Below are positions 3,448 to 50,735 of a stretch of DNA of 64,000 nucleotides, in pieces. The first letter of the stretch is position 1. The number at the start of each line of letters is the position of its first letter. The stretch is from contig CBDBZL010000002.1 in NCBI GenBank assembly GCA_965213545.1, positions 268,855-332,854 of the forward strand, read 5' to 3'. Below the pieces are notes generated by a model. It did no database searches, was not told the origin of the DNA, and saw only the letters and a program-made list of their open reading frames with translations. The stretch comes from Alteraurantiacibacter sp. (GTDB lineage: Bacteria; Pseudomonadota; Alphaproteobacteria; Sphingomonadales; Sphingomonadaceae). The position numbers and the translations under genes are program-made.

Positions 3448-5363
3448 GCGGGCTGTCGATCATCATTCCATGCCGCAACACCGGTGACTGGCTGGCGCAG
3501 ACGATCCGAAGCGCGCTGGCTCAGACCCGTCCGCCCGACGAGATTATCGTGGTGGATGACGGCTCGACCGACGACAGCGCTTCGATCGCCACTTCCTTCA
3601 GAGCGCCTGTGCGGGTGGTAGCGGGACCGGCGACGGGCGCGGCCGACGCGCGCAACCACGGTGGCAAGCTGGCCACGGGCGAGCGGCTGATGTTCCTCGA
3701 TGCCGACGATCTTTTGACCCCCCCCACCCTCCATCATCTCTCGCAGGCGCTTGATGATGCGCCGCGTGCCGGCTTGGCGATCTGCCCCTGGGACCGTTAC
3801 GAGTTCGAGGGTTTCGGCTGGATCGCCACGCCTCCCACCGCCGCCCTGCCCCGCCCCGGGCAGGACCGGCTCGCGGCCTGGCTGACGGGGTGCTGGTCCC
3901 CGCCCTGCTGCATCTTGTGGACGCGTGCTGCTTTCGAGCGCTCGGGCGGTTGGCTGCAGGAAGCAGGTCTGGATGATGACGGCAACCTGCTGCGCCGGGC
4001 GCTGGCACGGGGCATCGATGCGGTCGATGCCCCGCACGGCCTGGCGCTTTACCGCCGCTTGCCAGGGGAGGCGCGCTCCTACAGCGCCCGCCGGCTCGAG
4101 CCTTTCGGCCTGCGCTCGCGCCTCGCTTCGCTGACAGACACCGCTAACGAGCTCGAGCAAAGCGGTGCCCTGCCGCTCTACCGGGCTCCCTTGAACGAGG
4201 CGCTGGCCGCGCTCCATGAGGATGCCAGGACCGTGGCCGCGATCGCGGCCACGGTCGGCGACCTCATCGCGCGGATCGGCGGCGCCCGCCGAACGAGGTC
4301 CAGGATCCACGCTCGTGCCGGGCGCTTGGGCGCCCAGGCCTCGGCCTGGGTTCGCGAGCGGACCACGCCTCCAAGATGCGTGCCCGATCCCAGCCACCAA
4401 GGGTCTCGCCAAAGACTAGCGCATCGCGCTGCGGACGCATGGGACGCCGCCCGAGTAAGCGTAATCATTCCCACATATAACCGGGCGCAACTCGTTGAAC
4501 GAGCTATCGCCAGTGTCCTTCGCCAGACGCATCCGGCGATCGAGGTTATCGTGGTCGACGACGGCTCGACCGACGAGACGCCCGCCCGCCTCGCGCGGAT
4601 CGGCGATGCCCGGGTCAAGGTGATCCGGCAGGACAATGCGGGGGTGGCCGCCGCGCGCAACCGGGGGATAAAGGAAGCAACAGGCGATTTTGTCTCCTTC
4701 ATCGATTCGGACGACGAGTGGCGCGACGACAAGCTGGCCAAGCAGCTTGCCGCGCTATCCGATGCGCCCAGCCATGTCGGGCTTTGCGTCACCGGTGGGT
4801 TCGCGGTGACTGACGGCGGAGTGCATGAACGGCGGTGGTCGCCGTCGGGTCGTCTGTTCGAGCCGTTGCTGGTCGAAAACACCATCTTCATGGGCATCGG
4901 CGCGCTGGTCCGATCTGGTGTGTTCGAGGCGGTGGGCGGCTTCGATCCGTCGCTTCCGGCTATCGAGGACTGGGACTGGCTTCAGCGTGTCGCGCGTCTC
5001 TACGATTTCGTCGCGGTCGATGAGCCCCTCATCACCTACCACGACGCTGATCAGCCGGGCCGCCGCTCGACCCGCTTTCGCGCCAACCTGGACGCGCGCG
5101 AGATGCTGTGGCGGCGTAACCGTCACGCGCTTCGGCGCGCCGGGCTGGCGCAGCGCTACCTGCTCGAAAGTGCGCGCCGTGAACTGCGCGAGAGCGACGG
5201 GCTGGACGGGCGCGGGCGGCGCCTGGTCCTGCGCGCGCTGGCGGAACGGCCGCAGAACATCGCGCTAATGCCCTGGCTGTCTTACATGGCGATGCCCTTC
5301 GCCATGCGCGCCGCCCTGCGACAGGTCGATGCAAAGCGGAGAAAGCTCGTCGTCCGGGAGTGA
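3444..5363 (+). CDS. Tandem GT2-GT2 glycosyltransferase (two complete family-2 modules in one ORF)
   Basis: GTG at 3444 overlaps the upstream stop (GTGA). Module 1: LSIIIPCRNTG, IIVVDDGSTDDS, FLDADD. Module 2: VSVIIPTYNRA, VIVVDDGSTDET, FIDSDD. Confidence 0.85.
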   Translation: MSGLSIIIPCRNTGDWLAQTIRSALAQTRPPDEIIVVDDGSTDDSASIATSFRAPVRVVAGPATGAADARNHGGKLATGERLMFLDADDLLTPPTLHHLSQALDDAPRAGLAICPWDRYEFEGFGWIATPPTAALPRPGQDRLAAWLTGCWSPPCCILWTRAAFERSGGWLQEAGLDDDGNLLRRALARGIDAVDAPHGLALYRRLPGEARSYSARRLEPFGLRSRLASLTDTANELEQSGALPLYRAPLNEALAALHEDARTVAAIAATVGDLIARIGGARRTRSRIHARAGRLGAQASAWVRERTTPPRCVPDPSHQGSRQRLAHRAADAWDAARVSVIIPTYNRAQLVERAIASVLRQTHPAIEVIVVDDGSTDETPARLARIGDARVKVIRQDNAGVAAARNRGIKEATGDFVSFIDSDDEWRDDKLAKQLAALSDAPSHVGLCVTGGFAVTDGGVHERRWSPSGRLFEPLLVENTIFMGIGALVRSGVFEAVGGFDPSLPAIEDWDWLQRVARLYDFVAVDEPLITYHDADQPGRRSTRFRANLDAREMLWRRNRHALRRAGLAQRYLLESARRELRESDGLDGRGRRLVLRALAERPQNIALMPWLSYMAMPFAMRAALRQVDAKRRKLVVRE

Positions 5364-5396: not shown

Positions 5397-6362
5397 TTAT
5401 ACCGGGACCCTGCTGCCCTTCAGCAAAGCGTCGAAATAGGCAATTGTCTTGGGCAGGCCTTCCTTGAGCGGCGTGCGGGGCTGCCAGCCATCGAGGCTCT
5501 CGCGGGCCAGGGTGATATCGGGTCGGCGCTGCTTGGGATCGTCGGACGGAAGGGGCTTGCGCTCGAGTACCGAGGCGGACCCGGTCAGATCGAGAATGGT
5601 CTCGGCAAGCTCGAGAATGGAGAACTCGCCCGGATTGCCCAGGTTGACCGGCCCGGTGAACTTGGCAGGCGTCTTCATGAAACGCACGAAAGCTTCGACA
5701 AGGTCGTCGACATAGCAAAAGGAGCGGGTCTGGCTGCCATCGCCATAGATGGTGATCGGCTCGCCGCGCAGCGCCTGGACGATGAAGTTGGAGACCACCC
5801 GCCCGTCTTGCGGATGCATCCTGGGACCATAGGTGTTGAAGATGCGCGCCACCTTGATCTCCAGCCCGTGCTGCCGGTGGTAGTCGAAGAACAGCGTCTC
5901 GGCGCAGCGCTTGCCCTCGTCGTAGCACGAGCGGGTTCCCACCGGATTGACGTTGCCCCAGTAGCTTTCGGGCTGCGGATGGACGATCGGGTCGCCATAG
6001 ACTTCCGAGGTCGAGGCTTGGAAGATGCGCGCGCCCGTCCGCTTGGCGAGCCCCAGCATGTTGATCGCGCCGTGCACGCTGGTCTTGGTGGTCTGCACCG
6101 GATCGTGCTGATAGTAGATCGGCGATGCGGGGCAGGCGAGGTTGTAGATCTGCCCGACCTCAACGAATAGCGGGAAGGTGATGTCGTGGCGCTTCAGCTC
6201 AAAGCGCGGGTTGCCGTGATGGTGCGCGACATTGTCGTGGCTGCCGGTGAAGAAGTTGTCGACGCACAGCACATGCGCGCCATCGGCGATCAGCCGGTCG
6301 CACAGGTGCGAGCCCAGAAAGCCCGCCCCGCCGGTGACGAGAATGCTTTGCCGTCCATACAT
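5397..6362 (-). CDS. UDP-glucuronate decarboxylase (UDP-xylose synthase)
   Basis: ATG at 6362 ([24 protein letters not shown]). Near-continuous UXS hallmarks: [62 protein letters not shown]. Confidence 0.9.
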
Positions 6363-6782
6363 GTCCCAGGCCCTCGCAGCTTTCAAACCCCCGGAGCAAC
6401 GCACGACACCCGGCATCGACCCTCCGACAGCCAAGCTGGAAGGCGAGCCGGGTAAAGATCGCAAGCAAATTCGGTTAGGAAGCCGCGGTAATCCATTGAC
6501 GGGACGGACCCTCTGCTCCGCGACAGCTTGGGCCTATCCGCCCGGACAGCCCGCGTTACCGGCCGCGCCGCCGTGATTATCGCCGCCTCGTCCCTGCCTA
6601 TCGAGCTATCGCGGCGTTGGACGAGGCGCAGTGGCTTTCCATAGGCTTGCCAAGGTGATAGCGGCGCGGGCGAGTTTCTTCCCGGATTAGAAAAGGGGCA
6701 TTTTCCATTGAGACCCGCTCGGGGGCGTGATCTGGTCAGACTGGGTGTGCCGCCGCACCTTGCCCGATAATGCCGCCCCATA

Positions 6783-14712: not shown

Positions 14713-15648
14713 CTAAACGGCCAGACCTGCCTCTTCAAAGTAGGCCTCATCCACCTCGCGAATGTGCAGCACGGCCCTATCGCGACAGCCGACGTTGAAC
14801 TTAATCATCAACCGGACAAGCTGCTGACCGTCAATCAACACGATGCGCTGACCAAGGTCCTTTGCGGTCTGCCGCGCTGATGGCGTAAAATCCGACGTAG
14901 TGACAAAAATACCTTTGTGAGCTTTTTTTAAGTTCAGCGCGCCATAAAAGTCTCGGATATGTGAGGGCGCTATGTTGTTTCCCGTCCTGTAGCGTTTGGC
15001 TTGCAGATAGATTTGGTCAACACCGAGCGAGTCTTGATCGATGACGCCGTCAACGCCGTCGTCGCCTGCTTGACCAAGGGCACGACCGGGATTTTCAGAC
15101 GATCCGCCATAGCCCATCGATATCAGCAGATCGACGATCAGGTGCTCGAAGAATGTCGGCGATGCGGCTTGAATATAGTCGAGCAGCGTAGCCGCAAGCG
15201 CATCATCCAATCGGCGGTGTGCTTGCTCAAGATTTTCATCCGGAGTTGTTGCAACCTCGCCTGTATCAATATCGTCCTCGGCTGACGACAACTGCTCAGT
15301 CTTATCTTTGGTCCGCGAACGGAAATCTTGAAACTCAGGGTATATTTCAAGGTGCTTTATGTTTATCTTGATATTCGGATCGGCGAGCACGCCGCGACCG
15401 CGATCGGTCAATTCGTACCATCCCCGTTTCCCGTAAATGATCAGCGCCGCTTGCTTGAGGTAAGTACGCGCCCAGTGCGCGCGGTTGAAAATGCGGGTTT
15501 GACCACTTGCGAGGGGCTCGTTCCGCTCTTCCTGAGTGAGGTTGAATTGGTCCGCGAGCTCTTCGACCACTTCCGACATCTTGCGGGGTTTGTCGGCGGC
15601 GGCTGCCAGCACTGGACGCATAAGAGCCTGAAAATCCGGAACCGCCAT
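14713..15648 (-). CDS. mrr: Mrr-type (type IV, modification-dependent) restriction endonuclease
   Basis: ATG at 15648. Mrr_N winged helix (MAVPDFQALMRPVL...), catalytic core GDDGVDGVIDQD...IYLQAKRY, GIFVTTSDFT. GC is about 40% on the two 60-nt lines I counted, against about 65% in flanks. Confidence 0.9.
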   Translation of the reverse strand: MAVPDFQALMRPVLAAAADKPRKMSEVVEELADQFNLTQEERNEPLASGQTRIFNRAHWARTYLKQAALIIYGKRGWYELTDRGRGVLADPNIKINIKHLEIYPEFQDFRSRTKDKTEQLSSAEDDIDTGEVATTPDENLEQAHRRLDDALAATLLDYIQAASPTFFEHLIVDLLISMGYGGSSENPGRALGQAGDDGVDGVIDQDSLGVDQIYLQAKRYRTGNNIAPSHIRDFYGALNLKKAHKGIFVTTSDFTPSARQTAKDLGQRIVLIDGQQLVRLMIKFNVGCRDRAVLHIREVDEAYFEEAGLAV

Positions 15649-15756
15649 GAAAACCCCTCGCCGACCATCAGTTCGGAAATGCCTATGGGGCTGACTTGTC
15701 TTAAAGTGAAGCATCCACCGATTTGCGCTGATTTCGGAAGCCGCTAAGGCCCCCCC

Positions 15757-17355
<1,599 letters not shown>

Positions 17356-17381
17356 GCCGGACGGGTCTGGGGCGTCGGTCG

Positions 17382-18017
17382 CTACCCGACCGGCTCCATC
17401 CCCTGCCGCTCGAGCGCCATCCTGACGCCTTCGTCCCGTTCCATCCGCTTGCGATGCTCGATCAGCGAAGGGTAATCGCTCGCCGATAAGGGCGTCTGGT
17501 CGAGCCAGCGGGTCAGCACATAGAGAAAGGCGTCGGCGAAGCTGCGCTGGCCGAGATACCACTCGCCGCCGTTCTCCTTGAGGTTCGCTTCCATCCGCTC
17601 GTAGTGACCGGCGAGCGTCTCGTAGGCCTTGCGCTTGACCTCCTCCTGCGCGCTTTCGCTGTCGGCGAAGCGGGCGGCGGCGAAGTGGGGGCCGTAGGCG
17701 GCGTGGACCTCGCTCGTCATGTAGGCCAGCGCCTCGCCCTCCTTGCGGCCGAGCCGCTCGTCGCGCGAATATTCCTCGGTGCCCTCACCGCCATATTCGG
17801 TGCCAAGCCAGGTCAGGATCGCGGCGAGCTCGGTCAGCACATCGCCGTCATCGAAGCGGATCGCGGGCACCTTGCCCTTGGGATTGATCGAAAGATACGC
17901 ATCCTTCTTGTGCGCGCCATATTCCATGTTCTCGATCTCGATCGGTGCATCGAGCCAGGCAACCGCGATATTCGCCGCCAGCGAGCAGGTTCCGGGCATG
18001 GTGTAGAGGGTGGTCAT
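17382..18017 (-). CDS. Glutathione S-transferase
   Basis: ATG at 18017 with AGGAGA upstream. MTTLYTMPGTCSLAANIAVAW, INPKGKVPAIRFDDG; 211 aa. Confidence 0.85.
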   Translation of the reverse strand: MTTLYTMPGTCSLAANIAVAWLDAPIEIENMEYGAHKKDAYLSINPKGKVPAIRFDDGDVLTELAAILTWLGTEYGGEGTEEYSRDERLGRKEGEALAYMTSEVHAAYGPHFAAARFADSESAQEEVKRKAYETLAGHYERMEANLKENGGEWYLGQRSFADAFLYVLTRWLDQTPLSASDYPSLIEHRKRMERDEGVRMALERQGMEPVG

Positions 18018-31855: not shown

Positions 31856-32443
31856 ATGACCGAGACGATCGCCGAGCAAAAGGCGCAATTGCGCAAAACC
31901 CTGCGCCGGGTACGCCGCGAGCACGTCGCCAACCTGCCCCCGGAAGTGTGCGCGCTGGTGTTCCGTACCCCGCCCTCGCCGATCCGCGACCTGATCGCGC
32001 CGGAAGCCGTGATCGGGCTCTATCACGCCACGTTGGCAGAGGCGCCCGCGTCTTCCTATGCCCAGTTCTTCCATGAGAAGGGCTATAGGATCGGGCTTCC
32101 CCGTATAGCCGGGGAAGAAGGGGAGATGGACTTTGGCCAACATAGCGATCCCTATGGGTACAGCGACCTGGAGCCTGGCCCCAGAGGCATATTGCAGCCT
32201 GGCGCTGGTGCTGCAAAGTTGGTGCCCGAAGTCCTGTTCGTTCCCGTGCTCGGCTTTACCTTCACGGGAGCCCGGCTGGGCCAGGGCGGTGGCCATTATG
32301 ATCGCTGGCTGGCTTCCCACCCCGCCAGGCTGGCGATCGGGCTTGCCTGGGACGTGCAGAGGCTCGACAGCCTGCCTCAAGAGGATCACGACATGACGCT
32401 TGGTGCTATCATCACCCCCAGCCGCCTCTACGGGCCGTTCTGA
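31856..32443 (+). CDS. 5-formyltetrahydrofolate cyclo-ligase
   Basis: KAQLRKTLRRVR..., FVPVLGFTFTGARLGQGGGHYDRWL. Confidence 0.8.
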   Translation: MTETIAEQKAQLRKTLRRVRREHVANLPPEVCALVFRTPPSPIRDLIAPEAVIGLYHATLAEAPASSYAQFFHEKGYRIGLPRIAGEEGEMDFGQHSDPYGYSDLEPGPRGILQPGAGAAKLVPEVLFVPVLGFTFTGARLGQGGGHYDRWLASHPARLAIGLAWDVQRLDSLPQEDHDMTLGAIITPSRLYGPF

Positions 32444-32682
32444 TGCGCACGCGGCCGACCTGGCGCATTCCTTTCGGGGTTTTGGCCTTGCTGATCGGCA
32501 TCATCGTCTACACGATGGGGGTGGTGCTGCTTTCGCCGCTGATCGAGCGTCTGCCGGTCTGGGCGCAAACCATCATCTATCTGGTTCTTGGAATCGTGTG
32601 GCTGTTGCCGCTGCGAGGCTTCCTGATCTGGATGGAAACAGGCCGAACCCGCCCGCCGCCGCCATCCTCGTCAGTCGAATAG
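32443..32682 (+). CDS. Small two-TM membrane protein (DUF2842-like)
   Basis: 79 aa; two hydrophobic helices; ATG overlaps the upstream stop (TGATG). Confidence 0.5.
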   Translation: MRTRPTWRIPFGVLALLIGIIVYTMGVVLLSPLIERLPVWAQTIIYLVLGIVWLLPLRGFLIWMETGRTRPPPPSSSVE

Positions 32683-32691
32683 GGCCGCGCC

Positions 32692-33474
32692 TTGCCCGAG
32701 CTGCCCGAAGCCGAGGCCAATCGCCGCCGGATAGAGGCGATGTGCCTCAACCGCACGATCGAAGACGCTTCGCCGGGCGATAACGTGAAACACCTCGAAT
32801 TGCCCGAAGACAATGAGCGCAAGCGCTTGATCGGGGGACAATTCACGCAGGCTCGCCGGCATGGCAAGATGGTCTTTGCCGGCAGCGCGTCCGGACCGTG
32901 GATCGCGGTCCACCTGGGCATGACCGGCCGCCTCGAGCCACGCGTCGAAGGCGAGGAGCCGCCGCCCGACGCCAAGTTCGTCATCCGCTTCGAGGGCGGT
33001 ACCCGGATGTACTTCCTCAACAAGCGCAAGCTGGGCTGGTTGAGAGTGATCGAGGATCCGGACAGCTTCATCGAAGAGAACAGCTATGGACCCGATGCGC
33101 TAAGCATATCACACGAGCGGTTTTGTAGCCTACTTGCCGCCACGAGAGGCGCGGTCAAGGCGCGGCTGATGGATCAGAAGAAGCTGGCGGGCCTGGGCAA
33201 TCTATGGTCGGACGAGATATGCTTTGCCAGTGGTGTGGCGCCCGCGCGTTGCGGTAGCGACCTTTCGCCAGCGCAATGCGCCAAGGTGTTCACGACCATG
33301 CGCGATGTGCTCGGGCGGCTAATCGAAGTGGCTTCGAACCGTGACCGGCTGCCTGGCGATTGGCTGATCCATCATCGCGAGAAAGGCTCCGGCTGCCCGC
33401 GCTGCAAGGGAACTATCGCCTCGCGCACGATCGGCGGCCGCACGTCATATTTCTGCGACACGCATCAAAAATGA
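32692..33474 (+). CDS. Fpg/Nei family DNA glycosylase
   Basis: N-terminal (M)PELPEAE catalytic motif (TTG start); C-terminal zinc finger CPRCKG...YFCDTHQ. Confidence 0.8.
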   Translation: MPELPEAEANRRRIEAMCLNRTIEDASPGDNVKHLELPEDNERKRLIGGQFTQARRHGKMVFAGSASGPWIAVHLGMTGRLEPRVEGEEPPPDAKFVIRFEGGTRMYFLNKRKLGWLRVIEDPDSFIEENSYGPDALSISHERFCSLLAATRGAVKARLMDQKKLAGLGNLWSDEICFASGVAPARCGSDLSPAQCAKVFTTMRDVLGRLIEVASNRDRLPGDWLIHHREKGSGCPRCKGTIASRTIGGRTSYFCDTHQK

Positions 33475-47155: not shown

Positions 47156-48202
47156 TCAGATGGGGTCCGGTGCGGTTCCGGGGACGGTCCAGGTTTGACC
47201 CTTGGCGAGCAGATGCGCCAGGCTGGTGTCCTTGCCCGCCACTGCCTTGGCCCGCTCCTCGCCGACCACGCTTTCGAAAGTGGGCCGCGGATCGTCATAC
47301 AGCACGCCCAGCGCCATGGGAAAGGCGCCGAAGGGCAGTTCGACCAGCATATGGGCGATCGAGCGGTTCTTCACATTGTGCACGATCACTCCGGCCGCGC
47401 GCCAGTCGCCGTCAGGAATTTCAACCACGCGCAGCTCGAGCGTGTCGTGATCCAGCGTGATCCCCTTGAGCCCGCCCGTCTTCTCGCTGCCGAACAGCAT
47501 CGGCTGCCCATCCTCGAGCCATAGCTGACGGTCCTCGGCACCCTTGGGCGCTGCGAAGTCGTCGAACACGTCCTTGTTGTAGACGATGCAGTTCTGGAAG
47601 ATCTCGATGAACGCCGCGCCCTGGTGTGCGTGTGCTGCGATCAGCACGTCGGGCAGCCTCTTCGAGACATCGAACCCGCGAGCCACGAACCGCGCACCTG
47701 CGCCCAGGGCAAAGGCGCACGGGTTGGTCGGCCGGTCGACCGAGCCGTGCGGCGTGGAGGGCGAGCGCGTACCGACCCTGCTGGTCGGCGAGGCCTGCCC
47801 CTTGGTGAGGCCGTAGATCTCGTTGTTGAACAGCATGATCTGCATGTTCACGTTGCGGCGGAGCACATGCATCATGTGGTTGCCGCCGATCGAGAGCCCA
47901 TCGCCATCGCCGGTGACCAGCCAGACATCGAGCGCCGGGTTGGCCAGCTTTACCCCCGTCGCCACCGCCGGCGCGCGCCCATGAATGGTGTGGAAGCCGT
48001 AGCTCTCGATGTAATAGGGAAAGCGGCTCGAACAGCCGATCCCGGAGATGAAAACGGTGTTCGCCGGGTCCGCGCCCAGCTGCGGCAGCGTGCGCTGGAC
48101 GGCCTTGAGGATGGCATAGTCCCCGCAGCCCGGGCACCAGCGCACCTCCTGATCGGTCTCCCAGTCCTTGAGGGTGGTTTCGATTTTAACGGGTGCGTTC
48201 AT
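47156..48202 (-). CDS. korB: 2-oxoglutarate/2-oxoacid:ferredoxin oxidoreductase beta subunit
   Basis: RWCPGCGDYAIL, GIGCSSRFPYY, TGDGDGLSIGGNH. Confidence 0.9.
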   Translation of the reverse strand: MNAPVKIETTLKDWETDQEVRWCPGCGDYAILKAVQRTLPQLGADPANTVFISGIGCSSRFPYYIESYGFHTIHGRAPAVATGVKLANPALDVWLVTGDGDGLSIGGNHMMHVLRRNVNMQIMLFNNEIYGLTKGQASPTSRVGTRSPSTPHGSVDRPTNPCAFALGAGARFVARGFDVSKRLPDVLIAAHAHQGAAFIEIFQNCIVYNKDVFDDFAAPKGAEDRQLWLEDGQPMLFGSEKTGGLKGITLDHDTLELRVVEIPDGDWRAAGVIVHNVKNRSIAHMLVELPFGAFPMALGVLYDDPRPTFESVVGEERAKAVAGKDTSLAHLLAKGQTWTVPGTAPDPI

Positions 48203-48205
48203 GTG

Positions 48206-48547
48206 TCAATCCAAATCGCAAACTCTTTGCACAAAGTCGAACGTCAACTGTTCACCTGCAACGACGTTGGCGATCCTGAATACCGCTATATATCCTGCTG
48301 ATCTCCAAACATCAGAAGCAGTAGTCCTATCTCTGCGACGCATAACGGCAAATCCTTCTTGTATTAAAGCGTCAGCTTGAGCCCGAAACTTCGTTTGAGA
48401 CCGATCAAACTCGTCATCGTGATAATGTGTGCCGTTTGACAGAACGTCCCAAACGCAAGGAAGTGACTTACCATCAACTTCTGGGTGCCGCGGTGCACTG
48501 ACTTGAGCAAACCAACTACCTTGGTTCCCTTTAGCTTTAGCCCTCAT
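48206..48547 (-). CDS. Orphan 113-aa protein inserted between korA and korB
   Basis: ATG at 48547. TGA at 48208-48206 lies 3 nt before the korB ATG. GC was 45-50% on three 60-nt lines counted, against about 65% in flanks. No motif recognised (MRAKAKGNQGSWFAQVS...YHDDEFD...AGYIAVFRI...). Confidence 0.5.
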   Translation of the reverse strand: MRAKAKGNQGSWFAQVSAPRHPEVDGKSLPCVWDVLSNGTHYHDDEFDRSQTKFRAQADALIQEGFAVMRRRDRTTASDVWRSAGYIAVFRIANVVAGEQLTFDFVQRVCDLD

Positions 48548-48633
48548 TTTTTTGCCCTTAAAGTTGATTTGTCAGGCGGCACCGCGTCATCGCCATGAAA
48601 CGGCGCATGGGGATAGCTGCCATCATCATACCC

Positions 48634-50571
48634 CTACTCCAAAGTCGGTAACTGCAGCGCCTTCACCGGCACCACGCCGCCCTCATTGCCCTCGACGCCA
48701 TCGAAATACTTGCCGATCGCCTCCTCCAGTTCGGCGATCTGGAAAGGCTGCCCGCTGGTCTTGGTGAGGCTCTGGGCATCGACCAGATATTGGTCACGCA
48801 GCACGGTCTTGAACTGGCCGGTGTTCATCTCCGGCACCAGCACGTGCTCGAAGCCCGCCAGCAGCTCGCCCAGGTTGGCGGGCAGCGGCCAGACGTGGCG
48901 GACATGGATGTGGCTGACCCGCAGGCCTTTGTCGATCGCGCGGCGTACCGCCTGGCGGATGGGGCCATAGGTCGAGCCCCAGCCGACCACCGCTAGGTCG
49001 CCCGTCGCCTCGCCATAGGACACTTCCTGCGCCGCCACCGCGACACCCAGCACCTTGCCCACCCGCGCATCGGTCATCGCCTGGTGATTGGCCGGCGAAT
49101 AGTCGATATTGCCGGTGGTCGCATGCTTCTCGATCCCGCCCACCCGGTGCATCAGCGCGGGCGTGCCGGGCCGCACCCAGGCACGCGCGCCTTTCGCATC
49201 GCGCGCATAGGGCAGGAAGTCCGCGCCTTCGGGCAGCGTCTCCATGAAGCGCGCGGGGAACGGCTCGAACGTAACGGGATCGGGTACCTTCCAAGGCTCG
49301 GCGGCATTGGCGATATAGCCATCGGTAAGCAGCATCACCGGTGTCATGTGATGGACGGCGATGCGGACCGCCTCGATCGCGCAATCGAACGCGTCGCTGG
49401 GCGAACGAGCCGCGATCACCGGCATCGGCGCGTCGCCGTTGCGGCCATAGACCGCCTGATAGAGGTCCGACTGCTCGGTCTTGGTGGGCAGACCAGTCGA
49501 CGGGCCGCCACGCTGCGAATTGACGATCACCAGCGGCAGCTCGACCATGATCGCCAGCCCCATCGCCTCGGTCTTGAGCGCGATCCCCGGTCCGCTCGAG
49601 CTGGTCACCCCGAGCGATCCTGCATAGCTCGCGCCGATCGCCGCGCAGATCGCCGCGATCTCGTCCTCGGCCTGGAAGGTGGTGACGTCGAACTCCTTCA
49701 GCCGCGCCAGGTGGTGCAAGATGGCGCTGGCGGGCGTGATCGGATAGCCGCCGAAGAACATCGGCAGCCCGGCAAGCTGGGTACCCGCGACCAGCCCCAG
49801 CGACACCGCCTCGGCGCCGGTAATGGTGCGATAGAGCCCGGGTTCGGCCTGCGCGGCGGGCAACTGTCGCTGGCGCAGCGGACCGGGTCCTGATAGCTCG
49901 GCGGTCTCACCGAATGCATGCCCCGCATTGAGCGCGGCTATATTGGCCCGCGCGATCTCGGGCTTCTTGGCGAACTTGGCGTTGAGCCAGTCGATCACCG
50001 GCTGGCGGCGGCGGCCGAACATCCACAGAGCCAGCCCCAGCGTCCACATGTTCTTGGATCTGAGGGCATCCTTGTTGCCCAGCCCGAACTCCTTCACCGC
50101 CTCGATGGTCATCGCCGAGATGTCGAGCGAGAGCAGCGTCCACTTCGCCAGGCTGCCATCCTCGAGCGGATTGAGCTCGTAATGCGCCTTGTCCAGGTTG
50201 CGCTTGGTGAACTCGCCCTTGTCGGCGATCACCAGCCCGCCCGGCTTCAGCGCTTCGAGGTTCACCTTGAGCGCGGCGGGGTTCATCGCCACCAGCACGT
50301 CGGGTGCATCGCCCGCGGTGCTGATCTGGCGGCTGCCGAAATTGATCTGGAAGGCAGAGACGCCGAACAAGGTGCCCTGCGGCGCGCGGATCTCGGCCGG
50401 GAAGTCGGGGAAGGTGGCGAGGTCATTGCCCGCCAGCGCGGTCGCCAGCGTGAACTGACCGCCGGTCAATTGCATGCCATCGCCGGAATCGCCGGCAAAC
50501 CGCACGACGACGGAATCGATCTGGTCGGGCTCGGAGCCTTGCCCCGATTGATCGGACATTGCGGTTGCCAT
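48634..50571 (-). CDS. korA: 2-oxoglutarate/2-oxoacid:ferredoxin oxidoreductase alpha subunit
   Basis: RFAGDSGDGMQLTG, FPDFPAEIRAP, GYPITPAS. ATG at 50571 or 50559. Confidence 0.9.
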   Translation of the reverse strand: MATAMSDQSGQGSEPDQIDSVVVRFAGDSGDGMQLTGGQFTLATALAGNDLATFPDFPAEIRAPQGTLFGVSAFQINFGSRQISTAGDAPDVLVAMNPAALKVNLEALKPGGLVIADKGEFTKRNLDKAHYELNPLEDGSLAKWTLLSLDISAMTIEAVKEFGLGNKDALRSKNMWTLGLALWMFGRRRQPVIDWLNAKFAKKPEIARANIAALNAGHAFGETAELSGPGPLRQRQLPAAQAEPGLYRTITGAEAVSLGLVAGTQLAGLPMFFGGYPITPASAILHHLARLKEFDVTTFQAEDEIAAICAAIGASYAGSLGVTSSSGPGIALKTEAMGLAIMVELPLVIVNSQRGGPSTGLPTKTEQSDLYQAVYGRNGDAPMPVIAARSPSDAFDCAIEAVRIAVHHMTPVMLLTDGYIANAAEPWKVPDPVTFEPFPARFMETLPEGADFLPYARDAKGARAWVRPGTPALMHRVGGIEKHATTGNIDYSPANHQAMTDARVGKVLGVAVAAQEVSYGEATGDLAVVGWGSTYGPIRQAVRRAIDKGLRVSHIHVRHVWPLPANLGELLAGFEHVLVPEMNTGQFKTVLRDQYLVDAQSLTKTSGQPFQIAELEEAIGKYFDGVEGNEGGVVPVKALQLPTLE

Positions 50572-50735
50572 GCTCGTGTCGCAAAATCCATGCTGCGGCG
50601 TCCGGCCAAGCGCCCGTGATCGGACCGGTTGGCCGCGACCTAAGCCCGCGCCCGGCGGGGGACAATCAACTTTTTCTGTCGCCGGTTCAATCACCAGGAT
50701 GGAATTGGCGACGAGCTTTTCCTATCACCGGCGTG

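Follow-up and report, generated by a model that had tools for sequence, protein, structure and literature searches.

We analyzed a stretch of 64,000 nucleotides (nt) from Alteraurantiacibacter sp. (GenBank assembly GCA_965213545.1, contig CBDBZL010000002.1, positions 268,855 to 332,854 of the forward strand), referred to here as the window. Between its korA and korB genes, which encode a two-subunit 2-oxoacid:acceptor oxidoreductase according to the family-model matches of both flanking proteins, lies an AT-rich open reading frame (ORF) of 113 codons that we designate X. We consider it rather probable that X is a passenger of mobile-element origin, which was captured at the stop–start junction of korA and korB and is expressed via the kor operon, and that it is not a subunit of Kor. 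A sequence-only reading of this DNA had already taken X as foreign to the operon, and this part of it was borne out: X has an atypical composition, is absent from all 80 related korAB loci and has homologues on phages, on a plasmid and in defence islands. Below, the locus of the window is denoted WIN and the compared loci carry L-numbers.

X differs in composition from both of its neighbours. Its GC content is 0.474 and its GC content at third codon positions (GC3) is 0.386, compared with 0.664 and 0.841 for korA and 0.649 and 0.851 for korB. The low GC reported earlier turned out to be the deepest trough of the window, as X contains its lowest 340-nt segment (0.471, z = -4.8), and among the 53 long ORFs of the window (median GC3 0.78) X ranks lowest in GC3. 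Codons ending in A or T account for 69/113 in X, 92/645 in korA and 51/348 in korB, and the codons AGA, AGG, ATA, TTA and CTA together for 9/113, 5/645 and 3/348, respectively. Members of the X family inside host operons or in high-GC phages have a GC3 of 0.39–0.56, next to neighbours at 0.71–0.88, and in some mobile-element or defence contexts (L007, L009 and L101) their composition is like that of the surroundings. We also considered the ORF with the second-lowest GC3 of the window (0.49; 32403–32783, plus strand) as a second wedge and rejected it; it consists of normal-GC DNA and is probably a wrong-frame artefact.

The X reading frame and its junctions with korA and korB

The features of the locus are as follows.

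48634..50571, minus strand: korA, alpha subunit of 2-oxoacid:acceptor oxidoreductase (TIGR03710, 637 bits; POR_N, POR and PFOR_II)
48544..48633, minus strand: relic of the former 3' end of the korA coding region, 29 codons and a TGA in the korA frame past the TAG (from the tail alignment)
48206..48547, minus strand: X, 113-codon AT-rich ORF, predicted small beta-barrel protein, stand-alone (from composition, family and AlphaFold2 model)
48200..48208, minus strand: stop–start junction of X and korB, TGA-CAC-ATG (from the sequence)
47156..48202, minus strand: korB, beta (thiamine pyrophosphate-binding) subunit (TPP_enzyme_C, E = 3e-28; TIGR02177, 252 bits; PorB_KorB)

The ORF had been described as wedged exactly into the junction of the two kor genes, and its coordinates and stop–start spacing were confirmed. 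korA stops with the TAG at 48636–48634; X has the same orientation, runs from 48547 to 48206 and ends with the TGA at 48208–48206, from which the 3 nt CAC lead to the korB ATG at 48202. For korA itself, the ATG at 50571 (MATAMSDQ...) is more likely to be the start than the GTG at 50694; orthologues start with MATA....

The distance of about 430 nt given for the gap between korA and korB also stood (431 nt from the korA TAG to the korB ATG), but not all of it is inserted DNA. When the 86 nt at 48633–48548 are read in the korA frame beyond the TAG, they encode GYDDGSYPHAPFHGDDAVPPDKSTLRAKK followed by a stop codon. This peptide aligns with the KorA tails of L010, L011, L013, L014, L018, L023, L034, L057 and L076, in which the pattern is ...LE[S/A/Q]GHDDGSYPDAPFHGDGA...AVNQ and stop. 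At the DNA level, the relic is 78–81% identical to the stretch just past the aligned korA end in L010, L014, L046, L057 and L034. The window TAG stands where the relatives have Ser, Ala or Gln, and the ancestral tail has been shortened by 29 residues. Hence, the possibility that the 86 nt represent insert DNA or a spacer was ruled out; they are relic korA coding sequence, which leaves X alone, about 345 nt, as the true insert. As the relic tail is still undecayed, we took the TAG as recent, either a recent nonsense mutation or else a sequencing error.

The TGA of the relic (48546–48544) overlaps the start codon of X as ATGA (AAAAAATGAGGG), and the same overlap is found in L004. This arrangement suggests that X was first coupled to a korA with a long tail through the ATGA overlap. 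X occurs with both long-tail and short-tail korA backgrounds. Within the relic there is also a mini-ORF of 23 codons in another frame (48629–48558), and an AAGGG is located 7 nt upstream of the X ATG.

Ahead of the korB ATG in the window, no Shine-Dalgarno sequence stronger than GGA was found, consistent with what the sequence-only reading had reported. Some X orthologues (L001 and L004) end with ...TTGAGGTAA, thereby supplying a GAGG in front of korB. From the geometry of the X stop and the korB start, it is plausible that korB translation depends on coupling to X. No terminator was detected at the korA–korB junction, and promoter-like matches near X amounted to one weak 9/12 match in 1 kb, where 0.4 would be expected by chance. 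An RNA element within the junction was considered and rejected, as an Rfam scan of the junction gave zero matches; RNA around the X stop and the korB start is without unusual structure (z = +1.03). No terminal repeats, again as noted before, and no inverted repeats were seen to bracket X.

We propose that X, having neither promoter nor terminator of its own, would rely on the kor promoter for its transcription, with korA, X and korB being translated one after another. Since the appearance of the premature TAG, its initiation could be served by the weak AAGGG or by the 23-codon ORF acting as a bridge. korB, with its Shine-Dalgarno sequence lost, would be translated by reinitiation 3 nt past the X stop. 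Because of this dependence an imprecise loss of X would be costly, and only a precise deletion, or recombination with an X-less allele, would be tolerated, which would give the X cassette its positional persistence.

Elsewhere in the window, at 14713–17562 on the minus strand, we observed a gene whose 949-aa product contains the domains Mrr_N and Mrr_cat and is thus of the type IV (modification-dependent) restriction type. The protein has a long unassigned N-terminal region, and its gene lies in the second low-GC patch of the window.

The korA–korB junction in related genomes

We scanned for korAB loci using the C-terminal region of KorA as the query and one genome per species, and compared 80 loci from Erythrobacteraceae/Sphingomonadales (L010–L089). 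None of these 80 species-representative loci had an X homologue. X is thus neither universal in the clade nor, with the lowest GC3 of the window, native in its codon usage.

Junctions could be measured in 79 loci. korA and korB overlap by 4 nt (ATGA) in 40 of them, 16 more have a gap of at most 16 nt, and 23 contain inserts of 72–525 nt with depressed GC at about locus position 4190–4700. The inserts are of at least eight unrelated kinds and are co-oriented with kor; the starts and stops of those that are ORFs abut or overlap the korA and korB codons. MITE-like (miniature inverted-repeat transposable element-like) palindromic repeats of two types were present (…CGTCATCCCAGCGAAAGCTGGGATC… and …TTCGCCCTGAGCCTGTCGAAGGGC…), as were single-transmembrane (TM) ORFs of 26–38 aa, homologous in L015 and L058 (E = 3e-9), and 4-TM ORFs, homologous in L022 and L066 (E = 5e-13). 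Further ORFs were other multi-TM proteins of 134–137 aa and two of the signal-peptide type.

Two loci were particularly informative. In L094 (positions 1–860), the korA–korB slot holds a series of three ORFs linked through TGATG overlaps, which encode a small TM protein, a 4-fold beta-flower protein of 116 aa (PF21784, E = 1e-11) and X. In the pair L049 and L060, the korA and korB flanks are ~94% identical, yet a 403-nt cassette with a 134-aa multi-TM ORF is present in one only. This cassette takes the place of the final korA codons and of the GGAGG ahead of korB, and no target-site duplication was seen at the indel. From the many unrelated inserts, the stack in L094 and the L049/L060 indel, we concluded that the korA–korB junction is a general and active insertion hotspot in Erythrobacteraceae, and that X is one of several tenants.

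The junction units resemble integron gene cassettes in being promoterless, single-ORF, co-oriented, stackable as in L094 and different between related genomes. Unlike integron cassettes, they sit within a housekeeping operon, where the stop codon of one unit overlaps the start codon of the next. By inspection, without a formal attC model, no attC-like inverted repeat common to the cassettes was found at their boundaries, and no integrase was present among the called genes or the neighbours of the kor loci. There is a small chance that the korA–korB cassettes, of which X is the recurrent one, constitute an undescribed class of "operon-junction cassettes", having no promoter or ribosome-binding site and residing exactly at the stop–start boundary of genes that are translated together. 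It is just as tentative to suggest that such cassettes would keep the coupling on both sides, be stackable, be hard to lose, because the initiation signal of the downstream gene has been replaced, and be exchanged among species through the conserved flanks.

Distribution and history of the X family

X itself gave zero family matches in Pfam, NCBIfam, PADLOC and PHROG (Pfam at E up to 1 produced a chance match to F-93_WHD only), and no TM segment was found in it, so that the absence of a known family and of TM segments noted earlier was upheld. Its status as an orphan was not. A word-indexed search of 5.8 billion proteins yielded five relatives with 50–59% identity, and when 1.84 billion cluster representatives were searched exhaustively with phmmer, 41 homologues at E up to 1e-3 were obtained, nearly all of them stand-alone proteins of 102–129 aa that form ~40 clusters at 50% identity. 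The family pattern is KAxGxQGSWFA...G..LPCV..W..Y.D...GYIAVF.V.NV...L.FD.V.R. Residues G, G, W, A, P, C and Y are nearly invariant, with no family-wide acidic or His residue. The window protein keeps every conserved residue (G7, G10, W12, A14, P30, C31, Y42, Y86 and L101). C31 (window numbering) is the only family-wide cysteine; C110 is confined to the Erythrobacter-type clade.

We compared 43 family members with Pfam, NCBIfam, PADLOC and PHROGs and obtained zero matches. No informative fused domain was found in the longer members either, and an astacin/CUB match of P0044, considered as a domain fusion, was spurious. A tblastn search of the INPHARED phage collection returned nothing, a search of a plasmid collection gave one match, and scanning metagenomes with the close-family alignment yielded two loci only. 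The ratio of non-synonymous to synonymous differences per site (pN/pS) between orthologues is 0.28–0.39, with synonymous sites saturated, which indicates that X is a real protein under purifying selection. We concluded that X belongs to an unnamed, uncharacterised family of small proteins that is confidently folded in prediction.

The exact X protein is missing from a collection of 15 billion proteins, which does include the KorB (on a 2.05-Mb contig) and the photolyase from this genome. The closest relatives of the window genome are represented by the KorB proteins P0052 and P0053, with at least 90% identity to the KorB of the window. Apparently, the X gene was not called, or was called with other ends, in the source annotation. 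Its absence, when the neighbours from the same genome are present, is a practical annotation gap.

Next, we considered where the family occurs. The insertion is not a one-off, as eight lineages besides that of the window carry family members in the same korA–korB slot. The nine lineages come from at least three divergent subclades, an Erythrobacter type (with a PRHPEVDG insertion), a P0045 type and a P0030 type. The loci are L001/L002/L003 (Erythrobacter sp. AP23 and relatives), L004, L008, L094, L095, L097 and L100. A second operon junction is occupied in L096, where the member P0013 (4001–4327) lies between murC and murB of the dcw cluster with gaps of 0 nt and 4 nt; the murC stop TAG is directly followed by the P0013 ATG, and P0013 has a GC3 of 0.46 next to neighbours at 0.76–0.81.

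Other members are carried by mobile elements. One lies beside the tape-measure gene of a Rhizobium prophage (L007), and three IMG/VR viral contigs (L090, L091 and L092) carry members together with TerL and portal genes, TerL-gpA or TMP_2. A Roseomonas plasmid region (L093) combines a member with IS21, a transposase, an integrase and a PIN/AbrB pair. Three of the ~10 non-operon contexts are adjacent to defence genes. In L009 the member is directly followed by a type IV GmrSD (PADLOC, E = 1e-96) and a GajB-like helicase, and the surrounding island also carries TraI and an AEP primase; in L101, 13 nt separate it from the C-terminal end of an upstream DrmMI/type IIG methyltransferase (E = 2e-32); and in the L091 prophage it is next to KwaA and KwaB (Kiwa). 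Separately, in L005 (5530–7339) X overlaps by 4 nt with the end of an unassigned 191-aa ORF and sits in a small island of hypothetical genes, with an acetyltransferase gene and mutL on either side; the neighbours of X have no Pfam or PADLOC match.

We then compared the history of X with that of its hosts. On the tree of KorA and KorB, X carriers are dispersed, and each of them has close relatives without X; the nearest locus to L004 is L016, which holds a different TM cassette. The divergence of X correlates with that of the host KorAB (Mantel r = 0.60, exact p = 0.004), X evolving ~2.2–3 times faster, from which it follows that much of the history of X in the slot is old and partly vertical. 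The pair L008/L097 is an outlier, with close hosts (0.15) and distant X genes (0.64). These patterns fit a history in which X descended vertically within subclades, was often lost, and was captured or replaced independently at least once.

A hint of recent movement came from L001 and L002, which are ~97.4% identical over 9.2 kb with ~5 differences per 200 nt. Their sole difference-free tract, 579 nt long (5950–6528), is centred on X, where ~15 differences would be expected, which suggests a recent lateral movement, recombination or sweep. The similarity of the near-junction flanks is also raised among WIN, L001 and L004. We had taken it as a sign of flank co-transfer with X and withdrew this, since the signal is common to X-less relatives and not X-specific: on the korA side, long versus short tails are a confounder, and on the korB side an N-terminal type that X-less genomes share. 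On the reading that we favour, the X cassette would be inherited vertically within lineages, often lost, and at times replaced or moved among relatives by homologous recombination in the conserved kor flanks.

Predicted function, alternative explanations and significance

An AlphaFold2 model of X, built on an alignment of 15 sequences, has a mean predicted local distance difference test score (pLDDT) of 94.9 and a predicted template modelling score (pTM) of 0.87, with seven strands and one helix arranged as a small beta-barrel. Foldseek found no significant neighbour (best E 0.17 in PDB and 0.02 in BFVD, TMq no higher than 0.45). The weak, non-significant matches are all PUA-like (Lon-N, SRA, YTH, ASCH, DUF3850 and CRBN), and the SRA entries among them are AbaSI, PvuRts1I, SUVH5/6 and ScoMcrA-like. 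PUA-type sequence models were not matched by any of the 43 family members at E up to 0.1, and the family profile had 0 matches among PDB sequences at E up to 10. The conserved W12, F13, Y42 and Y86 would be compatible with an aromatic pocket for a modified base or nucleotide.

Given the PUA-like weak matches together with the DNA-modification and restriction neighbours, X may be predicted as a reader or binder of modified nucleotides or nucleic acids in phage–host conflict, a possibility that we take seriously while holding the odds to be against it. Among possible functions, the most likely for its product would be that of a PUA-like module that binds a (modified) nucleotide or nucleic acid. 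The identity of X as a passenger derived from a mobile element is much firmer than this functional reading.

The likeness to the stand-alone PUA readers (EVE, ASCH, SRA and YTH) consists of a stand-alone, mostly-beta domain of ~110 aa and of the weak matches. Stand-alone PUA/EVE proteins are embedded in alpha-proteobacterial operons or occur in defence contexts (Bell, Wolf & Koonin 2020, PMC7641849), and X mirrors this dual lifestyle, with operon copies as well as copies beside type IV restriction, DISARM-like and other defence genes. However, operon-embedded EVE proteins are slow-evolving and universal in their operon, whereas X is patchy and evolves faster than KorAB. X also has no sequence-model match to EVE, ASCH, SRA or YTH, and its structural similarity to them is below significance.

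Several observations weigh against our interpretation of X as a mobile-element passenger with such a function. The low GC3 has lasted after divergence to 40–60% identity, which simple vertical residence in 65% GC genomes does not explain. The defence association of the family comes from just three of the ~10 non-operon contexts, and the PUA-like assignment is without a significant structural or sequence match in Foldseek, Pfam and PDB sequences. In addition, eight kor-junction lineages among ~20 resolved contexts represent a strong association with Kor and might point to a functional tie instead of a permissive site, even though the sampling of the family started out from a kor member.

Such a tie would be expected if X were a lineage-specific accessory factor of the 2-oxoacid:ferredoxin oxidoreductase, acting in its assembly or protection or as a regulatory subunit. 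The sequence-only reading had offered a new accessory subunit as one possibility, which we judge unlikely. X is missing from all 80 species-representative relatives with intact korAB, the same slot elsewhere holds unrelated TM, secreted-type or repeat inserts, and homologues of X occupy the murC|murB junction, prophages, a plasmid and sites next to restriction systems. It has no ferredoxin-like Cys motif, no match to POR, Fer4, PorC/KorC or delta/gamma subunits, and a foreign codon usage. These points have to be set against the use of the slot in nine lineages, the co-variation of X divergence with KorAB divergence, the purifying selection on X and the stoichiometric co-expression that tight coupling would yield. 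Overall, X is probably not part of the oxidoreductase.

A homing-like, self-propagating element, whose product directly or indirectly drives the copying of its cassette into empty stop–start junctions of conserved operons, is in our opinion quite unlikely. X does recall intronless homing, as known for the free-standing endonuclease genes of T4-like phages (PMC2988022): it is a small AT-rich ORF between highly conserved genes, sporadic among close relatives, AT-rich wherever it is embedded, with precise stop and start boundaries at two operon junctions (kor and mur). The phage copies lie near terminase, portal and tape-measure genes, which are typical sites of such endonuclease genes (PMC2988022), and in the strain pair L001/L002 a short identity tract, with 0 differences, is centred on X. 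One such tract could, however, be coincidental, any flank co-conversion at deeper divergence is not X-specific, and X divergence scales with host divergence. Moreover, X has no nuclease fold or motif: no match to GIY-YIG, HNH, LAGLIDADG, His-Cys, PD-(D/E)XK or EDxHD was obtained in Pfam, PADLOC or PHROG, and no acidic or His residue is conserved family-wide. The site also accepts unrelated ORFs without a conceivable nuclease role, so that the hotspot needs no activity of X.

It is improbable that the X protein is incidental and the insert acts as a translational spacer or attenuator that sets the KorA:KorB ratio. The rare codons of X, the AT-richness of all junction inserts, the stop–start abutment kept by many unrelated ORFs in the slot and the unstructured RNA at the X/korB boundary would suit this role, but it is contradicted by the purifying selection on the amino-acid sequence of X and by a confidently predicted domain that is conserved over phage, plasmid and chromosomal contexts, and a direct ATGA overlap suffices in 40 of the 79 relatives. 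It is highly improbable that X is what remains of an old insertion, non-functional and in decay, to which the premature TAG that breaks the original ATGA coupling and the missing public record of the exact protein could point. Its reading frame is intact and keeps every family-conserved residue, its pN/pS is well below 1, the model of its own sequence reaches a pLDDT of 95 and the relic tail is undecayed, so that the TAG is recent.

As a mobile-element passenger, X can be compared with other foreign genes in operons. ORFans, probably derived from phages, are known to join native operons, and insertion inside pre-existing operons is reported to be much rarer than addition at the ends (Price, Arkin & Alm 2006, PMC1480536). 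X shares its small size, atypical composition and phage-borne homologues with phage-derived ORFans and morons and, like such ORFans in native operons, would be expressed from the native promoter with no regulatory elements of its own. In contrast to the additions at operon ends, it lies between two subunits of one enzyme, abutting stop and start, and does so repeatedly; and unlike classical morons, which have their own promoter and terminator, X is without both. Thus, the joining of ORFans, probably of phage origin, to native operons was known already. What is new is that one uncharacterised family lodges repeatedly and precisely in subunit junctions, and that one junction has many different tenants, with stacked cassettes possible. 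On the tentative reading of a separate class of operon-junction cassettes, targeting by the X family, which also uses the murC|murB junction, might be active.

Foreign genes usually hitch-hike on operons at their ends; here it is a subunit junction of central metabolism that is used, repeatedly, together with one cell-wall operon. The family also adds new small proteins with a testable link to DNA-modification-dependent immunity. If the arrangement is general, it would offer accessory or selfish genes a positional route to constitutive expression and resistance to deletion, and operon-internal junctions would be worth scanning for defence and anti-defence genes that are missed by island-based searches.

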